Virus record (IMG/VR): IMGVR_UViG_2651869750_000011
Coordinates: 1-5,921 of that record
Reading direction: 5' to 3' (one strand)
DNA length: 5,921 nucleotides
From: a virus
Taxonomy: Duplodnaviria; Heunggongvirae; Uroviricota; Caudoviricetes
The notes beneath the pieces were generated by a model. The model searched no databases. It had not been told where the DNA came from and was given only the letters and a program-made list of their open reading frames with translations. Below are positions 1 through 5,921 of this stretch, piece after piece. The position numbers were made by a program, and so were the translations under genes. How positions within the stretch are numbered: position 1 is the stretch's first letter; each line of letters opens with the position of its first letter.

Positions 1-1158
1 GGCCCACTGGCAAAACTGCGTCTTGGTTTTTCCCTCCTGACCGGATCATTGAATGTTGTCAGGGTTCTGCCTGCATTATGGGGAATGGTGACGGGTTCCA
101 TTTCGTTACTGGGAGGCGCTATCGGGGCGCTGTTCAGTCCGGTCGGATTGATTGCTGCTGCGTTTGTGGCTGCGGCGGTTCTCATCTGGAAATACTGGGA
201 ACCCATCAAGGCGTTTTATGCAGGGGTGTTCAGTGGGATTATGGAGCGACTGGCCCCGTTGCGCGAAACCTTTGAACGGTTTGGCCCTGTTTTTGACGCA
301 ATCGGAAGCGGGATCAGCCAGGTGTTTAACTGGTTTAAATCGCTGCTGTCACCGATGGAGTCCAGCAAGGAAACGCTGGATAAATGTACCAGTGCTGGCG
401 AGATATTCGGTAACGTTCTTGGCGGTGCGTTACAGCTTGTTCTGACACCTGCAAAAATGCTACTGGATACGCTGGCGTGGATACTTGAAAAACTCGGTGT
501 GCTTCCGGATGAAGCGGAAAGGGCGCGCAAGAAAATCGAAGACGCACAGCGTGCGGCCATTCTTCAGGACAAGGTTGCCTTGCTTCAGGGGGACCTGGCG
601 AAAATCAATCTGCCGAAGCCTGTGGAAAATGGCAATGGCACCGGAGGTGATAAACCCAAAGACAACAAACCGCTCACAGACAGCAATACCGGTACGCTAC
701 GCAGACTCAGCAAAATTGCTGATAACACAGGTAAGCTGGTTGATGAGACGAAAAAACGCATTGGCCCCGGCGATATTGTCTTTAAGAACCTGCCCCGCGC
801 ACTTGCTGTTCGTGGGGAGTGGCAGGAGCGGAAGATTGCGCAGGTCAGTAAGCCTGCTTCCGCAATCAACATCACACCCGTGGTCCCGACTCCTCTGCCT
901 CCGGCGCTGGTCCCTGTTGTTGCGGCCAGCTCCCGCCCGGTGGCGGAGGCCATACGATCGCCAGTGGCATCAGTTCCTGCAACTTCCCGTAACCGGGAGC
1001 CTGTTGTCTCCGGATTTGGCGGTGAAATTCATGTTCATCTGCATAACGTTGTTACGCAGAATCCCCGCGAACTGGCGAAACTGGTCGGTGAAATGGTCAG
1101 GGCAGAATTGGAACGACGCGACCGTGCCGGACGTGGCAGTTTTTACGATAAAGATTGA
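1..1158 (+). CDS. Tail tape measure protein, C-terminal portion (P2 gpT-like); 5' end lies upstream of the window
   Basis: The frame-1 ORF is open from base 1 with no in-frame stop before the listed start at 49, so the gene is 5'-truncated by the window. The product has hydrophobic helices near its start, a Pro/Ala/Val-rich stretch (TPVVPTPLPPALVPVVAASSRP) and a charged C-terminus (ELERRDRAGRGSFYDKD). It is followed immediately by a gpU-like gene, as in P2 (T then U). Family assignment is from recalled similarity, not a search. Confidence 0.72.
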   Translation, partial: GPLAKLRLGFSLLTGSLNVVRVLPALWGMVTGSISLLGGAIGALFSPVGLIAAAFVAAAVLIWKYWEPIKAFYAGVFSGIMERLAPLRETFERFGPVFDAIGSGISQVFNWFKSLLSPMESSKETLDKCTSAGEIFGNVLGGALQLVLTPAKMLLDTLAWILEKLGVLPDEAERARKKIEDAQRAAILQDKVALLQGDLAKINLPKPVENGNGTGGDKPKDNKPLTDSNTGTLRRLSKIADNTGKLVDETKKRIGPGDIVFKNLPRALAVRGEWQERKIAQVSKPASAINITPVVPTPLPPALVPVVAASSRPVAEAIRSPVASVPATSRNREPVVSGFGGEIHVHLHNVVTQNPRELAKLVGEMVRAELERRDRAGRGSFYDKD

Positions 1159-1170
1159 GGAGTCATGGCC

Positions 1171-1659
1171 ATGATGATGATCTACGGCATGTTTGTTTTT
1201 GAGCTGCGCACATTGCCGCATCAGCAGTTACAGCAAAATAAAAGCTGGCGGCATGTGAAAAATGAACGCGTTAACCGTTCAGCAAGCTGGCAGTATATCG
1301 GGGCAGGCGATGATCGCATCGTGCTTTCTGGTGTGCTTTATCCTGAAATCACAGGTGGCGAAGTGTCGCTGTCGCTGCTGACCACGCAGGCGTATACAGG
1401 ACGCCCCTGGCCTCTGATTGATGGCGTCGGACAGATTTACGGCATGTATGTACTGACTGAAACGAATACGACCCGCTCCGAGTTTGATCGCTACGGTAAG
1501 GCGAAAAAGATAGAATTTTCACTGACTCTTGAACGCTGTGATGAGGATTTGCGGGAGCGCCTGCAATCCTCATCGTTCAGTGATATGCTGTCCGGCTTCA
1601 AAGATAAGGTCACATCATCCCTTAACAGCGCGGCCAGCTCCGTTAAAGGGCTGTTTTGA
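1171..1659 (+). CDS. Phage tail protein U (P2 gpU-like)
   Basis: The product (MMMIYGMFVFELRTLPHQQLQQNKSWRHVKNERVNRSASWQYIGAGDD...) matches the remembered P2 gpU N-terminus and length (about 160 aa). GAGGAG at 1157-1162 sits 8 nt before the ATG at 1171; an ATG at 1165 is an alternative start but is too close to the RBS. The tape measure stop (TGA 1156-1158) is 12 nt upstream. Confidence 0.85.
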   Translation: MMMIYGMFVFELRTLPHQQLQQNKSWRHVKNERVNRSASWQYIGAGDDRIVLSGVLYPEITGGEVSLSLLTTQAYTGRPWPLIDGVGQIYGMYVLTETNTTRSEFDRYGKAKKIEFSLTLERCDEDLRERLQSSSFSDMLSGFKDKVTSSLNSAASSVKGLF

Positions 1660-1666
1660 TTAACGC

Positions 1667-1696
1667 AAAACCGCTAATGGTCAGATTAGCGGTTTT
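1667..1696. terminator. Bidirectional intrinsic terminator hairpin between the convergent gpU and invertase genes
   Basis: Perfect inverted repeat AAAACCGCTAAT (1667-1678) / ATTAGCGGTTTT (1685-1696) with a 6-nt loop GGTCAG. It is followed by a T-rich run on the + strand (TTTTCATTTTCC) and, read on the minus strand, by TTTTGCGTTAATC. It lies 8 nt after the gpU stop and overlaps the invertase stop codon (1686-1688). Confidence 0.6.
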
Positions 1697-2285
1697 CATT
1701 TTCCTGAGTCTGCCTGGTTGTTTCTTCAGCCTGTATATCGCCTACAGGGTGATAACGATAAATCGTCGATATGCCGATGTCGTAAATGATCGCCAGTTGT
1801 TTCCTGTCATGACCGTTTTTAATCAGCCTCGCTATTTGCTCGTGTTGTTCTTTTGTCAACTTCGGGCGACGTCCGCCAATGCGTCCTTGTGCGCGTGCTG
1901 CTGCCAGCCCGGCCAGTGTACGCTCTACAATTAATTCACGTTCCATTTCGGCTAAAGCTCCCATGACGTGAAAAAAGAAACGCCCCATGGGTGTTGATGT
2001 GTCAATGCTGTCCGTTAGACTACGGAAATTAACACCTTTTTCCCGCAATTCCTCAATAAGCGTGATCAGGTGTTTCATACTTCTGCCCAGTCTGTCCAGC
2101 TTCCAGACAACCAGCGTATCTCCTTCTGATAGCGTTCTGAGCAGTTTTTTCAATCCCGGTCTGGCTGATTTCGTTCCGCTGATTTTATCTTCAAAAATCA
2201 GTTCACATCCTGCGCACTCCAGCGCGTTACGCTGCAATTCTGTATTCTGGTCATTTGTTGATACGCGGACATAGCCAATAAGCAT
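1686..2285 (-). CDS. pin: Serine site-specific DNA invertase (Hin/Gin/Pin/Cin family resolvase-invertase)
   Basis: The 199-aa product begins MLIGYVRVSTNDQNT (catalytic Ser in the YVRVST motif) and carries VVWKLDRLGRSMKHL, GRFFFHVMGALAEMERELIVERT and GRIGGRRPKL plus a C-terminal helix-turn-helix region. These are the hallmarks of the Gin/Pin/Hin/Cin invertases. An AGGGGA Shine-Dalgarno lies 6 nt before the ATG (minus strand). The symbol is a family-level guess; closest remembered match is E. coli e14 Pin. Confidence 0.9.
   Translation of the reverse strand: MLIGYVRVSTNDQNTELQRNALECAGCELIFEDKISGTKSARPGLKKLLRTLSEGDTLVVWKLDRLGRSMKHLITLIEELREKGVNFRSLTDSIDTSTPMGRFFFHVMGALAEMERELIVERTLAGLAAARAQGRIGGRRPKLTKEQHEQIARLIKNGHDRKQLAIIYDIGISTIYRYHPVGDIQAEETTRQTQENENR
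2179..2201. promoter_or_regulatory. Palindrome inside the invertase 5' coding region; candidate recombinational enhancer (Fis-binding) element
   Basis: CTGATTTT-ATCTTCA-AAAATCAG is a perfect 8-bp inverted repeat with a 7-bp spacer. It lies 84-106 bp inside the invertase ORF and about 160 bp from the nearer crossover site. In Hin and Gin systems the Fis-dependent enhancer sits in the 5' part of the invertase gene. Positional inference only. Confidence 0.25.
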
Positions 2286-2340
2286 GATGGATCCCCTGAA
2301 TAAAAACCGGGGATGATGCCAGTTAGCCGTAATCTCTGCA

Positions 2341-2366
2341 TTTTCTTAAACGTTGGTTTGGGAGAA
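2341..2366. repeat. Crossover site (gix/hix/pix-like), invertase-proximal end of the invertible segment
   Basis: TTTTCTTAAACG-TT-GGTTTGGGAGAA is an imperfect 12-2-12 dyad resembling the Hin-family half-site consensus TTATCAAAAACC. Its reverse complement matches the site at 4238-4263 in 13 of the 14 positions covering the inner half plus central dinucleotide. It lies 56 bp upstream of the invertase start. Confidence 0.7.
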
Positions 2367-2885
2367 GGTGCTCCAGCTATTGGCGTTCCGTTCTTCTGGC
2401 CGTCCGCAGCAATGCCAGATACCGTAATCGATAGCTGGTCCAGCATGGTGTTTTTGAAGTTCAACGGCGCGAAATTCTCTGCCACTGATTACCCTGTGCT
2501 GGCGAAAGTGTTTCCGGCGCTGGCATTACCTGACGCACGCGGTGATTTCATTCGTATCTGGGATGACGGACGCGGGATTGATGTCGGACGTACCCTACTT
2601 TCAGGGCAATCACACACAATTATGGATCATGCACACAATATGGAATTGTGGACGGGGGACGGGCTTGTCGCAGGAAGTACACGGGAAGGAGTAAACCCAG
2701 GAATACTGGCTACATATGGTGACGGGGGAATAGTTAAAACGGACGAACCCGGTCTTAGGGTGCCTTCCTCACTACGAGCTATTAGCTCTCGTAGCGTTAA
2801 ACGTTATGGTGAAATTAGTGGAAATGTAGGTACAGAAACCCGCCCACGAAATATTGCATTTAACTTTCTAGTGAGGGCTAAATAA
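2355..2885 (+). CDS. Alternative tail-fibre C-terminal variable domain cassette (silent orientation; no start of its own; Mu S/P1 S-type receptor-binding domain)
   Basis: The frame is open from the crossover site, reading GLGEGAPAIGVPFFWPSAAMPDTVID...NGAKFSATDYPVLAKVFPALALPDARGDFIRIWDDGRGID...DHAHN. This carries the GxPxxWP / aFSaxeYPxLA / LPDxRGxFIRgWDdGRGiD motifs remembered from Mu S and P1 S C-termini. Its stop TAA (2883-2885) overlaps the next ATG (TAATG). The 14 codons upstream of the site in the listed ORF (from 2313) are probably not a real start. Confidence 0.75.
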   Translation, partial: GLGEGAPAIGVPFFWPSAAMPDTVIDSWSSMVFLKFNGAKFSATDYPVLAKVFPALALPDARGDFIRIWDDGRGIDVGRTLLSGQSHTIMDHAHNMELWTGDGLVAGSTREGVNPGILATYGDGGIVKTDEPGLRVPSSLRAISSRSVKRYGEISGNVGTETRPRNIAFNFLVRAK

Positions 2886-3478
2886 TGAAACCTGTTTTTG
2901 ATGAAAATGGGCTGGCTACAGTACCGGGTAATATGCGTTGTTTTTATTATGAGGCAGTTACGTATGAATATACTGGCTGGTCTGATGAATATATTAATAC
3001 TGGCGTAAGTATGCCCGCTTGTTCCACTGGTATTGACCCGGGCGAATACATTCCGGGAAGAGTGGCAGTATTTACGGGTAAGGGATGGAGCCATGAAGAA
3101 GACCACCGCAATGAGACTGTTTACTCAATCGAAAATGGCGCAGCTGTTACAGTGGATTATATCGGTGCCATCAAAGACGGTTATGTCACGCTTTCACCGT
3201 TAACGCCATACGATAAATGGGATGGTGAGAAATGGGTGACGGATACCGAGGCACAGCATAGCGCCGCACTAGACGCGGCAGAAGTAAAGCGCCAGTCGCT
3301 GATTGATGCTGCAATGGCTTCCATCAGTCTGATTCAACTGAAATTACAGGCCGTGCGGAAGCTGACGCAGCCAGAAAACACCCGACTTAACGCTGTGCTG
3401 GATTATATTGACGCGGTGACGGCAACAGATACCAGCACCGCACCGGATGTCATCTGGCCTGAACTGCCGGAGGCGTAG
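2885..3478 (+). CDS. Tail fibre assembly protein (Tfa / Mu U-like chaperone), silent-orientation cassette
   Basis: 197 aa, translationally coupled to the upstream fibre cassette (TAATG overlap; GAGGG RBS at 2873-2877). The C-terminus (LDYIDAVTATDTSTAPDVIWPELPEA) is the conserved tail-fibre-assembly C-terminal motif. It converges on, and overlaps by 29 bp, the 3' end of the opposite-strand chaperone gene. Confidence 0.8.
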   Translation: MKPVFDENGLATVPGNMRCFYYEAVTYEYTGWSDEYINTGVSMPACSTGIDPGEYIPGRVAVFTGKGWSHEEDHRNETVYSIENGAAVTVDYIGAIKDGYVTLSPLTPYDKWDGEKWVTDTEAQHSAALDAAEVKRQSLIDAAMASISLIQLKLQAVRKLTQPENTRLNAVLDYIDAVTATDTSTAPDVIWPELPEA

Positions 3479-3890
3479 GCCATTCAATATCTGGCGCACC
3501 GGAAGTATCGACCAGTTCCAGTGCGTCCAGATAATCCAGCCACAAATTATATTGCACCAGTTCCTCACCTTTCAGGCGACCAATCGCCGCTTTACCAGGC
3601 CATTGCTTACTGTTTATGTATTCGTTGACCTGATTAATCAATTGCTGCTTTTTCAGTTCGGCTGCGGCAATTTGTTCCTCATGAGTTGGCGGTGGAATAT
3701 CAATCCATGCAGGCATTCCGTCGATGACACCTCTGTATTTTCCTTCTGGTGCTTCCTTCATAAATTCGGCAGCAACAGTGTCGTCAATTTCGATTCCATC
3801 ATCGGGCCATTCGCCGGATTCCTGATAAGCGATTTTAAGCTCCACAGGGAAAAACGCATTTTTATCGGCACTGAAAATATATTTCTGCAT
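3450..3890 (-). CDS. Tail fibre assembly protein (Tfa / P2 gpG / Mu U-like chaperone), currently expressed cassette
   Basis: 146 aa, starting 2 nt after the fibre gene stop, with an AGGA RBS 8 nt upstream. The C-terminus (LWLDYLDALELVDTSGAPDIEWPTPP) is the conserved chaperone motif. Confidence 0.85.
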   Translation of the reverse strand: MQKYIFSADKNAFFPVELKIAYQESGEWPDDGIEIDDTVAAEFMKEAPEGKYRGVIDGMPAWIDIPPPTHEEQIAAAELKKQQLINQVNEYINSKQWPGKAAIGRLKGEELVQYNLWLDYLDALELVDTSGAPDIEWPTPPAVQAR

Positions 3891-3892
3891 TT

Positions 3893-5383
3893 CTACCGTC
3901 CTATCGAAATATAACTGAATCTGTATTGCTGTGAGATATCACTGGTTGCCACACGCCACGCTGAATTACTGATATGTTCAAAATTTACAGACAAAACCTG
4001 CGGGGCAGGAATCGACGGGTCTGACTGAACGGCATCAGACATAACACTGACTGAAACCATCGGCTGATTAGGGAATGGTATAGGGAAGTGTCCACTGATA
4101 AAGCGGGTCGTGTTTCCTGCAAAAGTGCCAAACTGAACAATATATCCACCTGGTAGCCTGAACCATCCCGAACCAGAAGCGAATGCTCCCATATCCGGTA
4201 TCTGATTATCTCCTGTGCCCACATTCCGTTTTGCCGCTTCTCCTAAACCAAGGTAATCAAGAACTCCCTGAGTGCTGGTTTTACCAAGAATGGCACGTCC
4301 AACACTTGTCAACGCGGTTAACGCGGCACGATCTGCCCCTGTAAAATATGGGAGTTTATCTGCTGATGTAGCAAGCTCCGCCAGCGCCGTCAGGGTGGCA
4401 TCCTTCGGTTGCTTACCCGCAAGCGCGTTAGTCATGGTGGTCGCAAAATTCGGGTCATTGCCCAGCGCCGCAGCCAGTTCGTTCAGCGTGTTCAGTGCAT
4501 CAGGTGACGAATCTACAAGTGCGGCAATCGCAGCCATAACGAAAGCCGTGCTTGCGATCTGGGTACTATTAGTCCCCTGTGGCGCTGTTGGTGTTGTTGG
4601 CGTTCCGGTCAGTGCCGGGCTGTTTAATGGTGCTTTCTTGTTCGTTTCATCCATTACCGCCTTAACAGCTTTTGGTGTCGCTGCCAGCGTTTCAGACGTG
4701 CTGTTCGTGGCGCTACTGAGCTGAACAATCCCTTTTTGTGTAGTGGTGGCGTTCTGGGCGGTATATTTCCCGTTAGCCAGGTCATATGCAGCCTTAACCG
4801 CTTTCGGTGTTGCGGCCAGTGTTTCTGATTCACTGTTAATTGCACTGCTTAACTGAGTAAAACCTTTTACGGTCAGCGAGGCGTCCGGGTGACGTCGTGA
4901 CTGTTCGTGCTCTGATATTTTATCATCCACATATTTGCGGGTTGCCAGAACCACAGACGGGTCGATTTTCAGCGTGATAGCTTCGGTGTTCGTGACAACC
5001 AGAATCATGCGGATAGTCTGGGTGCGTCCACTGCCTTCCTGCAACTGCGGTTTGTACGTTTCCGGGCAGTTTGCCACCGCAATGAGTACACCTTCATCAT
5101 CATAAAGACCAATCTCACGGATCCAGAATCCTCCCTCGTTTTCAGGGATGATTTGCTCCGCAATAATCTGGCTCTGATTGTTAGGGTCAACACTCAGAAG
5201 ATTCAGCGGTGCAATGCGTTTCTGGTTAATCAGTTTTGTTTGTGCAGGGTCTGGTGTTGGTAACACACCATTTGCATCACCAACGGCCATTTGCGTCAGA
5301 TTCAGCTTACTGCCGAGCATCGTCGCGTTAGCCAGTCGTGCCGCGCCCTGATTAGTCAGAATGGCGTAGTATTTCACTGTCAT
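3893..5383 (-). CDS. Tail fibre protein (P2 gpH-like constant N-terminal 378 aa fused to a 118-aa variable C-terminus encoded inside the invertible segment)
   Basis: 496 aa. The N-terminal region (AVGDANGVLP..., GGFWIREIGLYDDEGVLIAVAN, YVDDKISEHEQSRRHPDASLTVKGFTQLSSA..SETLAATPKAVKA repeats) matches what I recall of P2 gpH. The ORF crosses the crossover site at 4238-4263 at the sequence ...VLDYL/GLGE.... Its start overlaps the gpI-like stop (ATGA at 5380-5383). Confidence 0.9.
   Translation of the reverse strand: MTVKYYAILTNQGAARLANATMLGSKLNLTQMAVGDANGVLPTPDPAQTKLINQKRIAPLNLLSVDPNNQSQIIAEQIIPENEGGFWIREIGLYDDEGVLIAVANCPETYKPQLQEGSGRTQTIRMILVVTNTEAITLKIDPSVVLATRKYVDDKISEHEQSRRHPDASLTVKGFTQLSSAINSESETLAATPKAVKAAYDLANGKYTAQNATTTQKGIVQLSSATNSTSETLAATPKAVKAVMDETNKKAPLNSPALTGTPTTPTAPQGTNSTQIASTAFVMAAIAALVDSSPDALNTLNELAAALGNDPNFATTMTNALAGKQPKDATLTALAELATSADKLPYFTGADRAALTALTSVGRAILGKTSTQGVLDYLGLGEAAKRNVGTGDNQIPDMGAFASGSGWFRLPGGYIVQFGTFAGNTTRFISGHFPIPFPNQPMVSVSVMSDAVQSDPSIPAPQVLSVNFEHISNSAWRVATSDISQQYRFSYISIGR
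4238..4263. repeat. Crossover site (gix/hix/pix-like) inside the tail fibre gene; distal end of the invertible segment
   Basis: TTCTCCTAAACC-AA-GGTAATCAAGAA on the + strand. The outer half read on the minus strand is TTCTTGATTACC, matching the remembered hix half-site TTCTTGAAAACC at 10 of 12 positions. The inner half matches the inner half of the 2341-2366 site at 11 of 12 positions. The site is embedded in the codons for VLDYLGLGE. Confidence 0.7.
4659..4858. repeat. Two copies of an approximately 68-bp direct repeat, 132 bp apart, inside the tail fibre gene
   Basis: GCCTTAACAGCTTTTGGTGTCGCTGCCAGCGTTTCAGA... (from 4659) and GCCTTAACCGCTTTCGGTGTTGCGGCCAGTGTTTCTGA... (from 4791) encode the repeated peptide QLSSA(I/T)NS(E/T)SETLAATPKAVKA. 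The spacing is in frame (44 codons). Confidence 0.6.
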
Positions 5384-5921
5384 GCGTTTACTCTCAGATT
5401 ATCAATTAAATGAATGGCCGGGGCAGGGAAATAATCCCCTTCGACAATAATGGACTCCGGGGTGTAGGGATAAACCGTCAGGGCATCGCCGTGATAGCAT
5501 CCCGTACCAACGAAAATCTTTCCGTTCACACTCAGGCTGATCGCCAGCCCCGTCAGATGGCGACTTACTGGTTTTGCATCCGCAATAAGGCGCTCAAGTT
5601 CCTGATACATTTCATCGGTGATGCCCTGATCAAGTACTCCGACAACAATGCGAAATGTTCCCGGCTCCTCGTTGAGTTGCCACCACTCCTTTACTTCAAT
5701 CAGGTAGCCGAGAGGCTCCACGGCTCTTCGCAGTGCGCTGATGGTCCCTTTGTGTCGGTGTATCAGCCATGCATCACGAATCACCTGTCGCTTTGTCTCT
5801 TCCGGCCAGTTGCGATCCCAGTGGTCAACGGAAAATGCCCAGGCGAGATAAGGCAGCAGATGCACCGGGCAGGTGTCCGGCGACCACAGCGTGTTGAGGT
5901 CTACCGGGATGTCTGTAATGC
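5380..5921 (-). CDS. Baseplate assembly protein (P2 gpI-like), 5'-partial; N-terminus lies beyond the window end
   Basis: The minus-strand frame stays open from 5865 to the window edge (…ITDIPVDLNTLWSPDTCPVHLLPYLAWAF…), so the listed start at 5865 is a GTG inside a longer ORF. The product resembles the P2 tail protein I family and is placed directly upstream of, and overlapping, the fibre gene, as I and H are in P2. Confidence 0.78.
   Translation of the reverse strand, partial: ITDIPVDLNTLWSPDTCPVHLLPYLAWAFSVDHWDRNWPEETKRQVIRDAWLIHRHKGTISALRRAVEPLGYLIEVKEWWQLNEEPGTFRIVVGVLDQGITDEMYQELERLIADAKPVSRHLTGLAISLSVNGKIFVGTGCYHGDALTVYPYTPESIIVEGDYFPAPAIHLIDNLRVNA

Follow-up and report, generated by a model that had tools for sequence, protein, structure and literature searches.

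Why do the tape measure and gpU genes of a P2-type tail point at a DNA invertase and a tail fibre block, with no gpD behind gpU? This question is raised by the stretch of viral DNA analysed here (the window; 5,921 nt), for which the initial annotation had considered that the FI-to-U block might be inverted, that two elements might be joined here, or that the cluster might be a fibre-switching tailocin. We hold with high confidence that the window derives from a temperate Escherichia coli prophage of the P88-like (Xuanwuvirus-type) group within the Peduoviridae, and that the FI-U inversion of this lineage is old and fixed and probably arose once. Given that the window's own flanks lie beyond the 5,921 nt, its completeness as a phage is judged from its relatives, whose flanks its own presumably resemble.

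Results

Gene content and the convergent junction

The features of the window are collected in Table 1. Features of a P2-type tail module were present in the form of gpU, gpI, the N-terminal collar domain of H, and the tape measure (PF06995, PF09684, PF12571 and phrog_28). The tape measure frame (frame 1) is open from the first base, matched phrog_17114 (9.5e-259) and phrog_28 "tail length tape measure protein" (5.9e-33), and aligned with the 3' end of 2808-bp genes in phage P88 and in the JB2 prophage. The gpU protein matched Phage_P2_GpU (5.5e-39) over the full length of the model (positions 1-120 of 120), with identities of 99% to P88 gp44, 62% to a Reipivirus protein, 47% to Fels-2 and 39% to pro483. 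The invertase showed the architecture of a small serine recombinase, with an NH2-terminal resolvase domain (PF00239, 6.2e-52) and a COOH-terminal helix-turn-helix (PF02796 HTH_7, 1.4e-12), and matched phrog_125 "DNA invertase" (1.8e-99), the annotation also carried by its counterparts in P88, P884B11 and phiSM. Its N-terminus, MLIGYVRVSTNDQ, contains the catalytic serine motif, and the catalytic motif YVRVSTNDQ is directly readable in the sequence. Family assignments of the window proteins were unambiguous.

Table 1 Features of the window (positions in nt)
Feature	Position	Strand	Evidence or remark
Tail tape measure protein (gpT), C-terminal 385 codons	1..1158	+	5' end outside window
gpU-type tail protein, final gene of the inverted FI-FII-E-E'-T-U operon	1165..1659	+	PF06995
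Terminator-like hairpin, 12-bp stem, 6-nt loop, T-runs on both sides	1667..1696	both	Top terminator-scan match
Hin/Gin/Cin/Pin-type serine DNA invertase, 199 aa	1686..2285	-	PF00239 and PF02796; phrog_125
Silent alternative fibre C-terminal segment (Hc')	2313..2885	+	phrog_523 "tail collar fiber protein", 5e-52
Crossover site beside invertase, TTTTCTTAAACG-TT-GGTTTGGGAGAA	2341..2366	.	hix/gix-like pattern; same site in JB2
Alternative tail fibre assembly protein (tfa'), paired with Hc'	2885..3478	+	PF02413 Caudo_TAP, 1.5e-24
Tail fibre assembly protein (tfa, gpG-like) for the currently expressed fibre end	3450..3890	-	PF02413, 9.3e-34; phrog_188, 1.7e-62
Tail fibre protein H, 496 aa in present orientation	3893..5383	-	PF12571, 1.5e-62; PF03406, 4.1e-42; PF21882, 1.3e-07
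Crossover site inside H, about codon 374-382, TTCTCCTAAACC-AA-GGTAATCAAGAA	4238..4263	.	Inverted relative to 2341-2366
gpI baseplate protein, N-terminus past window end	5380..5921	-	PF09684 Tail_P2_I, 3.2e-48; JB2 label "phage tail protein I"

The open reading frames and family matches confirmed that the tape measure and gpU genes on the plus strand converge on the invertase gene on the minus strand, and that no sheath, tube or gpD frame lies between gpU and the invertase or elsewhere in the window. The adjacency of gpU and the invertase stands as first described, but the gap between them is 26 bp rather than 27 bp, with gpU ending at 1659 and the invertase stop codon occupying 1686-1688. A 901-bp stretch across gpU and the invertase (1200-2100) was recovered at ≥80% coverage from 621 of 5426 complete E. 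coli genomes (~11%) and from 11 phage records corresponding to six phages. Our P88-type comparison set consisted of the Xuanwuvirus phages P88 and P884B11 together with 520873, 503458, 500465-2 and Citrobacter phage phiSM, all of which carry the T-U/invertase junction at 88-90% identity; a 1401-bp junction probe was collinear with P88 along 100% of its length. Because it recurs in these 621 closed genomes and 11 phage records, the junction is not an accident of assembly.

The FI-U block is inverted relative to P2

Compared with P2, the FI-to-U block is turned round, as the flanks of near-identical prophages and of P88 bear out. Both P88 and the JB2 prophage, the latter 99.3% identical to the window, carry genes for portal, terminase, capsid, lysis, R, S, V, W, J, I, H, tfa and the invertase, followed by U-T-E'-E-FII-FI on the other strand and then by D and ogr. 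These last two genes are placed and oriented as usual, and gpD diverges from FI. The initial statement that gpU lacks a following gpD is thus right locally but not overall, as gpD is found at the opposite end of the inverted block, still beside ogr. Among 80 IMG/VR loci whose gpU is identical or 99% identical to that of the window, the order was D- FI+ FII+ U+ [INV-] H- I- J- as far as each contig extends. The JB2 prophage shows signs of decay, in that H is labelled a pseudogene and the annotated D gene spans only 801 bp; given that some close relatives such as this one are decaying, the copy in the window could also be defective.

The P88 group has the same order as the window throughout its length and beyond it (T, U, convergent invertase, invertible Hc'/tfa'/tfa/Hc, H, I), and the conserved 55-57% of the window matches it with a nucleotide identity of 88-93%. 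It differs in its variable C-terminal fibre cassettes and chaperones, which is why megablast aligns only about 55% of the window, and the H protein of the window is much shorter than that of P88 (2295-bp gene). For P88 and P884B11, identity was 88.5-90% over 55% of the window, a comparison that covers only 5.9 kb, of which the rest consists of hypervariable fibre cassettes. By ICTV convention, a genus corresponds to about 70% nucleotide identity over the whole genome. The synteny seen was of the Xuanwuvirus type, with the FI-U block inverted and gpU convergent with the invertase/fibre block. The FI-U block is likewise inverted in Klebsiella phage ST16-OXA48phi5.4 (Reipivirus) and in Escherichia phage PhiR44_2, where D and FI diverge and U and the fibre genes converge. 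Neither phage has an invertase. Other cargo genes (DUF262) follow gpU in the former; the latter has kept the hairpin of the junction together with a remnant of the invertase gene, its last ~58 nt.

P2, Fels-2 (Felsduovirus) and pro483 (Peduovirus) contain the same set of tail genes as the window. Fels-2 and pro483 also have the same fibre-switch cassette, directly after tfa, and the fibre/invertase module of pro483 matches positions 1900-5890 of the window at 87.8% identity. Their genes, however, all lie on one strand in the order I-H-tfa-[switch]-invertase-FI-FII-E-E'-T-U-D-ogr, and U overlaps D in Fels-2. In the type represented by the window, FI-U runs the opposite way and D is separated from U.

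We surveyed 80 loci of different species, which were seeded with gpU N-terminal peptide patterns of five phages and are therefore not an unbiased sample of the family. The inverted order was found in 46 of the 80, distributed over more than 20 genera of Enterobacterales, and two further loci were consistent with it; a capsid gene lies 9-10 kb downstream in most of the inverted loci. The remaining P2 genes (P2-type capsid N, scaffold O, terminase P/M, portal Q, gpD and ogr) are present in P88, in the JB2 prophage and in most of the species loci. Classical P2 order was found in 28 loci, with three more consistent, and one locus showed gpU alone. Simple neighbour-joining trees of FI, D and U, constructed without bootstrap support, each contain one split that parts all inverted from all collinear loci. 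Such complete separation of the two classes points to one old, fixed inversion, and the change of order appears to have been a single event.

We propose that the FI-FII-E-E'-T-U operon was turned round in place, its own late promoter included, in an old ancestor, and that this single inversion has been fixed since. With the block inverted, the operon would be read toward the fibre/invertase block and end at gpU. Rather than being lost, the gpD gene would have kept its position beside ogr, where it now adjoins FI in divergent orientation about 6.5 kb beyond the left end of the window.

The invertase acts on the fibre segment, not on the tail operon

A search for a 26-bp hix/gix-like pattern gave two matches in the window, compared with 0.01 expected by chance, and the central dinucleotides of the two sites are complementary (TT and AA). 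The Hc' segment matches the C-terminal part alone of the phrog_523 profile and is predicted to be expressed only after inversion, from about position 2367 onward. When the segment was flipped in silico, Hc' became fused in frame to the constant part of H to yield a protein of 554 amino acids, with tfa' starting right after the new stop codon. The flipped form of positions 3197-4254 was present in three loci (L013, L019 and L043), and the breakpoints in flipped relatives fell at 2367 and at 4237-4254. In our reading, the invertase flips only the 1.9-kb segment from 2353 to 4251, swapping the C-terminal end of H together with the matching assembly chaperone. This arrangement resembles the G segment of Mu with Gin, the C segment of P1 with Cin, the P segment of e14 with Pin, and Salmonella Hin, in each of which a serine invertase lies beside a segment with 26-bp inverted crossover sites, and the switch in the window likewise swaps a fibre C-terminal part and a chaperone, although, unlike Mu and P1, the phage that hosts it is of P2 type.

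The inverted block occurs without an invertase in PhiR44_2 and the Klebsiella Reipivirus, and an invertase occurs with collinear order in Fels-2 and pro483. In 45.9 kb of JB2, a search for hix-like sites within three mismatches returned the two fibre sites only and none near the D/FI end. A search for inverted repeats bracketing the FI-U block found only short, imperfect repeats at chance level and no long one. Given that relatives lacking the invertase share the order and that the D/FI end has no crossover site, the FI-U inversion was not caused by the invertase. In our reading, the invertase is a movable fibre-switching cassette, unconnected to the FI-U rearrangement.

Hairpin at the junction and late promoters

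The terminator-like hairpin occupies the gap where the gpU and invertase genes converge and extends into the final codons of the invertase. Its predicted folding energy was -17.7 kcal/mol on the plus strand (z = -3.1) and -16.9 kcal/mol on the minus strand (z = -3.4), and its stem-loop is unchanged in P88 and in the invertase-less PhiR44_2. On the basis of these features, it probably stops both convergent transcripts. Scanning of the window for sigma-70 promoters gave eight hits, no excess over the 6.2 in shuffled sequence, and we therefore claim no promoters inside it.

Upstream of FI, a dyad was located at a distance of 74-88 bp where found, with the form TGT-N12-ACA or, in the P88 group, TGT-N12-AGA. 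The exact Ogr dyad, TGT-N12-ACA, was present in 14 of the 50 loci listed, 74-85 bp upstream of FI, including loci of Photorhabdus, Xenorhabdus, Pectobacterium, Morganella and Yersinia. It is absent from the D/FI spacer of the P88 group, in which the form with one mismatch alone is present. The dyad upstream of FI is a candidate for the PF promoter. For gpD, no convincing sigma-70 promoter was apparent in the D/FI spacer, and the distance from the dyad to D varies between about 46 and 79 bp.

Discussion

The inverted layout is already known: a very common group of prophages, sequenced and classified by ICTV, has it as its standard order. The possibility, raised at the outset, that such an arrangement belongs to a described phage family holds in substance, because the inverted order is standard in the ICTV genus Xuanwuvirus and in Reipivirus. 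We found no paper explicitly describing the FI-U inversion in literature outside the Casjens & Grose 2016 review of P2-like prophages. The P88 paper mentions neither inversion, orientation nor invertase (PMC5285337), the phiSM paper names the invertase in passing only (PMC6456863), and our search for "Xuanwuvirus" returned incidental mentions only.

The window, whose flanks are beyond view, might instead belong to a head-less, tail-only cluster, such as an R-type tailocin of the carotovoricin kind with a switchable fibre, or to a decayed remnant rather than a complete phage. Carotovoricin is known for fibre switching by an invertase (PMC13195805), carotovoricin Er and xenorhabdicin have P2-type contractile tail genes in common with the window, and some relatives of the window have pseudogenes in H or D. 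We consider this reading very unlikely, however. P2-type capsid, terminase and portal genes are present in every sufficiently long relative, and the tailocin idea fails against relatives that carry portal, terminase, capsid, replication and lysis genes; P88 is an inducible, lytic phage (PMC5285337), and phiSM forms plaques and lysogens (PMC6456863). The two tailocins are collinear and lack head genes, whereas the relatives of the window are complete phages with a different order. Neither tailocin layout resembles the convergence of gpU and invertase: carotovoricin has the order sheath, tube, chaperone, tape measure, gpU, baseplate, fibres and invertase (ein) (PMC13195805), and in xenorhabdicin the variable fibre region directly adjoins the sheath gene (PMC13280938). 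The one-strand order of carotovoricin was not seen in the window, where gpU is followed directly by the convergent invertase and fibre genes.

A mis-assembly, or a recombinational seam of two unrelated elements at 1660-1685, is barely credible. Invertible and repeated fibre regions often break assemblies, and 23 of the 80 IMG/VR contigs end right after the invertase, but the identical junction exists in the 621 closed E. coli genomes and in phages that were sequenced independently, base composition shows no step there, and the hairpin is invariant across P88 and PhiR44_2. The junction is kept across the whole clade, contrary to the suggestion that two elements meet here. It is also highly improbable that the invertase flips not only the fibre segment but the 6.5-kb tail operon too, in which case the FI-U block would itself be switchable and the window would represent one of two states. 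In favour of such a switch, the block has the invertase immediately at one of its ends, and serine invertases can use secondary sites. Against this reading, JB2 lacks a hix-like site near the D/FI end, no long inverted repeat surrounds the block, a single orientation was seen in all 80 close relatives and in all 46 inverted species loci, the order is common to relatives without any invertase, and flipping would part the operon from nothing useful.

The preferred reading, a fixed inversion in a P88-like prophage, might additionally entail regulatory effects, in the form of transcription antisense to the invertase or of one dyad that drives both divergent late transcripts, but we regard such effects as unlikely. 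Should they exist, read-through of the strong late tail operon past the hairpin at 1667-1696 would be antisense to the invertase and could silence fibre switching during lytic growth, and a single Ogr-type dyad in the short D/FI spacer might serve both divergent late transcripts. Either effect, if true, would add a minor new element to what is known of P2-family regulation, restricted to the inverted clade. The layout matters little in itself. It does mean that P2 order is not universal within the Peduoviridae, a large clade in more than 20 Enterobacterales genera having an inverted sheath-to-gpU operon, and that annotators as well as prophage and tailocin callers should not take the inverted layout as a signature of rearrangement, chimera or tailocin.

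Results

Gene content of the window

An ORF listing combined with Pfam and PHROGs scans yielded an unambiguous gene map of the window. The initial annotation had placed the tape measure gene and gpU in convergence with the invertase and fibre block, with no gpD, sheath or tube gene after gpU. Both points were borne out by the ORFs and family matches, with 26 bases separating the gpU and invertase stop codons in the ORF map, and neither the listing nor the scans revealed a sheath, tube or gpD gene anywhere in the window. The convergent tfa and tfa' genes overlap at their 3' ends by 29 bp. An 18-nt inverted repeat corresponds to the (L)DYIDA/LDYLDA C-terminal motif conserved in both chaperones and is not a regulatory hairpin.

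Features of the window
Feature	Position	Strand	Evidence or description
Tape measure protein (T), C-terminal 385 codons	1-1158	+	Open frame from base 1; phrog_17114 9.5e-259; phrog_28 5.9e-33
gpU	1165-1659	+	PF06995 5.5e-39, full model length
Hairpin	1667-1696		12-bp stem, 6-nt loop
Serine invertase, 199 aa	1686-2285	-	PF00239 6.2e-52; PF02796 1.4e-12; phrog_125 1.8e-99; catalytic motif YVRVSTNDQ
Hc', promoterless alternative fibre C-terminus	2313-2885	+	phrog_523 5e-52, C-terminal profile part only
hix/gix-like sites, 26 bp	2341-2366, 4238-4263		Inverted relative to each other
tfa', assembly chaperone of Hc'	2885-3478	+	PF02413 1.5e-24
18-nt inverted repeat	3397-3414, 3523-3540		Conserved chaperone motif
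tfa/tfa' overlap	3450-3478		29 bp
tfa, expressed chaperone	3450-3890	-	PF02413 9.3e-34
Fibre gene H, 496 aa	3893-5383	-	PF12571, PF03406, PF21882
gpI	5380 to window end	-	PF09684 3.2e-48

Layout of complete relatives

Over the 86% that the two share, the E. coli JB2 prophage and the window are 99.3% identical, and the prophage has a complete P2-type phage layout identical to that of P88 (Peduoviridae, genus Xuanwuvirus). Read along the direction of the baseplate genes, this layout comprises portal and large terminase genes, divergent from scaffold, P2-family capsid and small terminase genes; head completion, X, holin, endolysin and spanin genes; R, S, V, W, J, I, H, tfa, the invertible segment and the invertase; then, on the other strand, U, T, E', E, FII and FI; and, again on the first strand, gpD, ogr (so named in the JB2 annotation) and a Hok/Gef toxin gene. 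For gpD and ogr this is the P2 position and orientation; the reversed part in P88 and JB2 is only the FI-to-U block with its upstream spacer, and the turning of this block sets gpD back to back with FI. The proposal of an inverted FI-to-U block was therefore correct. Both pro483 (Peduovirus) and Fels-2 carry a fibre-switch cassette like that of the window but show the classical order of invertase, FI, FII, E, E', T, U, D and ogr, all on the same strand; in Fels-2 the U and D genes overlap.

The gpD annotation in JB2 covers only 801 bp, whereas homology extends about 300 bp further (L002, the JB2 locus, 14807-15916), and H is annotated as a pseudogene with a separate gp53-like ORF (L002 23872-25362); this copy, in the closest complete genome, appears to be decaying. 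Genes for ParM and a partition protein adjoin the replication gene in P88-like prophages (locus L001 26000-26959; L002 38080-39039), a hint that this lineage may have the option of plasmid-like maintenance.

Alternative explanations

A junction of two elements had also been considered, and we reject it. Window positions 1200-2100 (901 bp, gpU and invertase) were found in 621 of 5426 complete E. coli genomes at a coverage of at least 80% and with identity up to 100%, and a 1401-bp junction probe was collinear at 88-90% identity in six phages (P88, P884B11, 520873, 503458, 500465-2 and Citrobacter phiSM). No step in base composition was seen at the gpU/invertase junction, which is neither an artefact nor a seam. 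No gene past the invertase was detected in 23 of the 80 IMG/VR contigs compared (L007-L086), as fits assembly breaks at the invertible, repetitive fibre segment.

The suggestion of a phage-tail-like bacteriocin was likewise not supported, a judgement based on relatives and on published tailocin layouts, the flanks of the window itself being unseen. Carotovoricin clusters comprise holin, transglycosylase, sheath, tube, chaperone, tape measure, gpU, baseplate, spike and fibre genes, and their invertase gene (ein) lies at the fibre locus (PMC13195805). In xenorhabdicin loci, which contain no invertase, the variable fibre region immediately adjoins the sheath gene (PMC13280938); neither layout resembles the gpU/invertase convergence. 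P88 can be induced and can grow lytically (PMC5285337), and phiSM, which is 76.8% identical to P88, forms plaques and lysogens (PMC6456863). The phiSM record matches the tape measure, gpU, invertase and fibre genes of the window. Its virions were described as long and non-contractile, or siphovirus-like (PMC6456863), a morphology call that looks inconsistent with a P2-type genome.

Distribution of the inverted order

In each of the 80 IMG/VR loci whose gpU is identical or 99% identical, scored as far as the contig reaches, gpD lies on the minus strand, FI, FII and U on the plus strand, and H, I and J on the minus strand; the minus-strand invertase is absent in about 15. We also searched a single genome of each species with a gpU alignment and classed 80 loci by tblastn. 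Where all three of D, FI and U were detected, 46 loci had the inverted order, with 2 further loci consistent with it (gpU identity to the window at least 54%), and 28 had the classical collinear order, with 3 further loci consistent (at most 51%); one locus, with gpU only, was unclassifiable. Inverted loci spanned more than 20 genera, including Salmonella, Serratia, Kosakonia, Enterobacter, Pantoea, Erwinia, Klebsiella, Edwardsiella, Providencia, Morganella, Photorhabdus, Xenorhabdus, Pectobacterium, Yersinia and Citrobacter. Most had a P2-type capsid gene 9-10 kb past gpU, and in eight an invertase lay directly behind gpU. Neighbor-joining trees (without bootstrap) of FI, D and U each contained one split parting all inverted from all collinear loci. 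The inverted order marks a deep clade across many Enterobacterales genera, and the data are most simply explained by one old inversion in an ancestor, fixed since then, as the mark of a large P2-family sub-lineage. An enterobacterial prophage of this type, with 98% gpU identity, lies on a 226-kb contig of a genome labelled as a Firmicute ('Vagococcus sp. WN89Y', NZ_JBQPOM010000071.1); that genome is probably contaminated or a mislabelled assembly.

Putative signals flanking the block

Among the 50 loci listed, 14 carry an Ogr-type dyad, TGT-N12-ACA, in the D/FI spacer at 74-85 bp before the start of FI, including loci from Photorhabdus, Xenorhabdus, Pectobacterium, Morganella and Yersinia, and the P88-like group has a one-mismatch form, TGT-N12-AGA, 82-88 bp upstream of FI. 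Given its conserved spacing from FI and a spacing from D that ranges between about 46 and 79 bp, the dyad is probably part of the FI promoter, which would have travelled along with the inverted block. gpD would be transcriptionally uncoupled from gpU in this layout. Many inverted-clade members share a conserved GC-rich CACGCGCGCGCGGGA-like element near the gpD start in the D/FI spacer (L001 2483-2639; also loci L112, L134 and L124), which might be part of a gpD promoter or leader.

Among terminator-like sites in the window, the hairpin at the gpU/invertase junction, flanked by T-runs both ways, ranks first. Its folding energies were -17.7 and -16.9 kcal/mol for the two strands (z about -3), and the stem-loop is invariant in P88 and PhiR44_2. 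It is probably a terminator shared by the tail operon and the invertase transcript.

The invertase and the fibre module

Two hix/gix-like sites were found against 0.01 expected by chance, with complementary central dinucleotides. In-silico flipping of 2353-4251 kept H in frame, changing it from 496 to 554 aa with a shared junction peptide (...DYLGLGE), and put tfa' immediately after the new H. Window positions 3197-4254 are reversed in three closely related prophages (L013, L019 and L043), with breakpoints at both crossover sites. The role of the invertase is that of a standard Gin/Cin/Pin-type host-range switch.

The inverted order is independent of the invertase. PhiR44_2 and Klebsiella Reipivirus ST16-OXA48phi5.4 have the inverted block without it, and we found neither a crossover-like site at the D/FI end in JB2 nor a substantial inverted repeat bracketing the FI-to-U block. 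In PhiR44_2 the hairpin of the junction persists together with the final ~58 nt of the invertase gene (L004 9141-9230 versus window 1660-1744), indicating that the cassette was secondarily lost or replaced there, with a recombination boundary within the 3' end of that gene. Nucleotide homology with collinear Peduovirus phages (pro483, S164 and P2 from O157:H43) runs from inside the invertase gene (~1876-1900) to 5890, so that the fibre/invertase module has been exchanged between lineages of opposite tail-operon orientation; judged from sequence, the C-terminal ~70 codons of the invertase would be of local-lineage origin. The simplest reading is that the cassette was gained and lost independently, together with the fibre module. 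Its independent movement is supported by pro483, whose module is 87.8% identical to window positions 1900-5890 despite T and U genes with no DNA-level match to the window.

Discussion

The window shows the usual layout of a phage group that has been described and is very common, and this layout is thus already known. The present analysis makes modest additions: the inverted order forms a deep, multi-genus clade, it is independent of the invertase, and it would leave gpD uncoupled from gpU.
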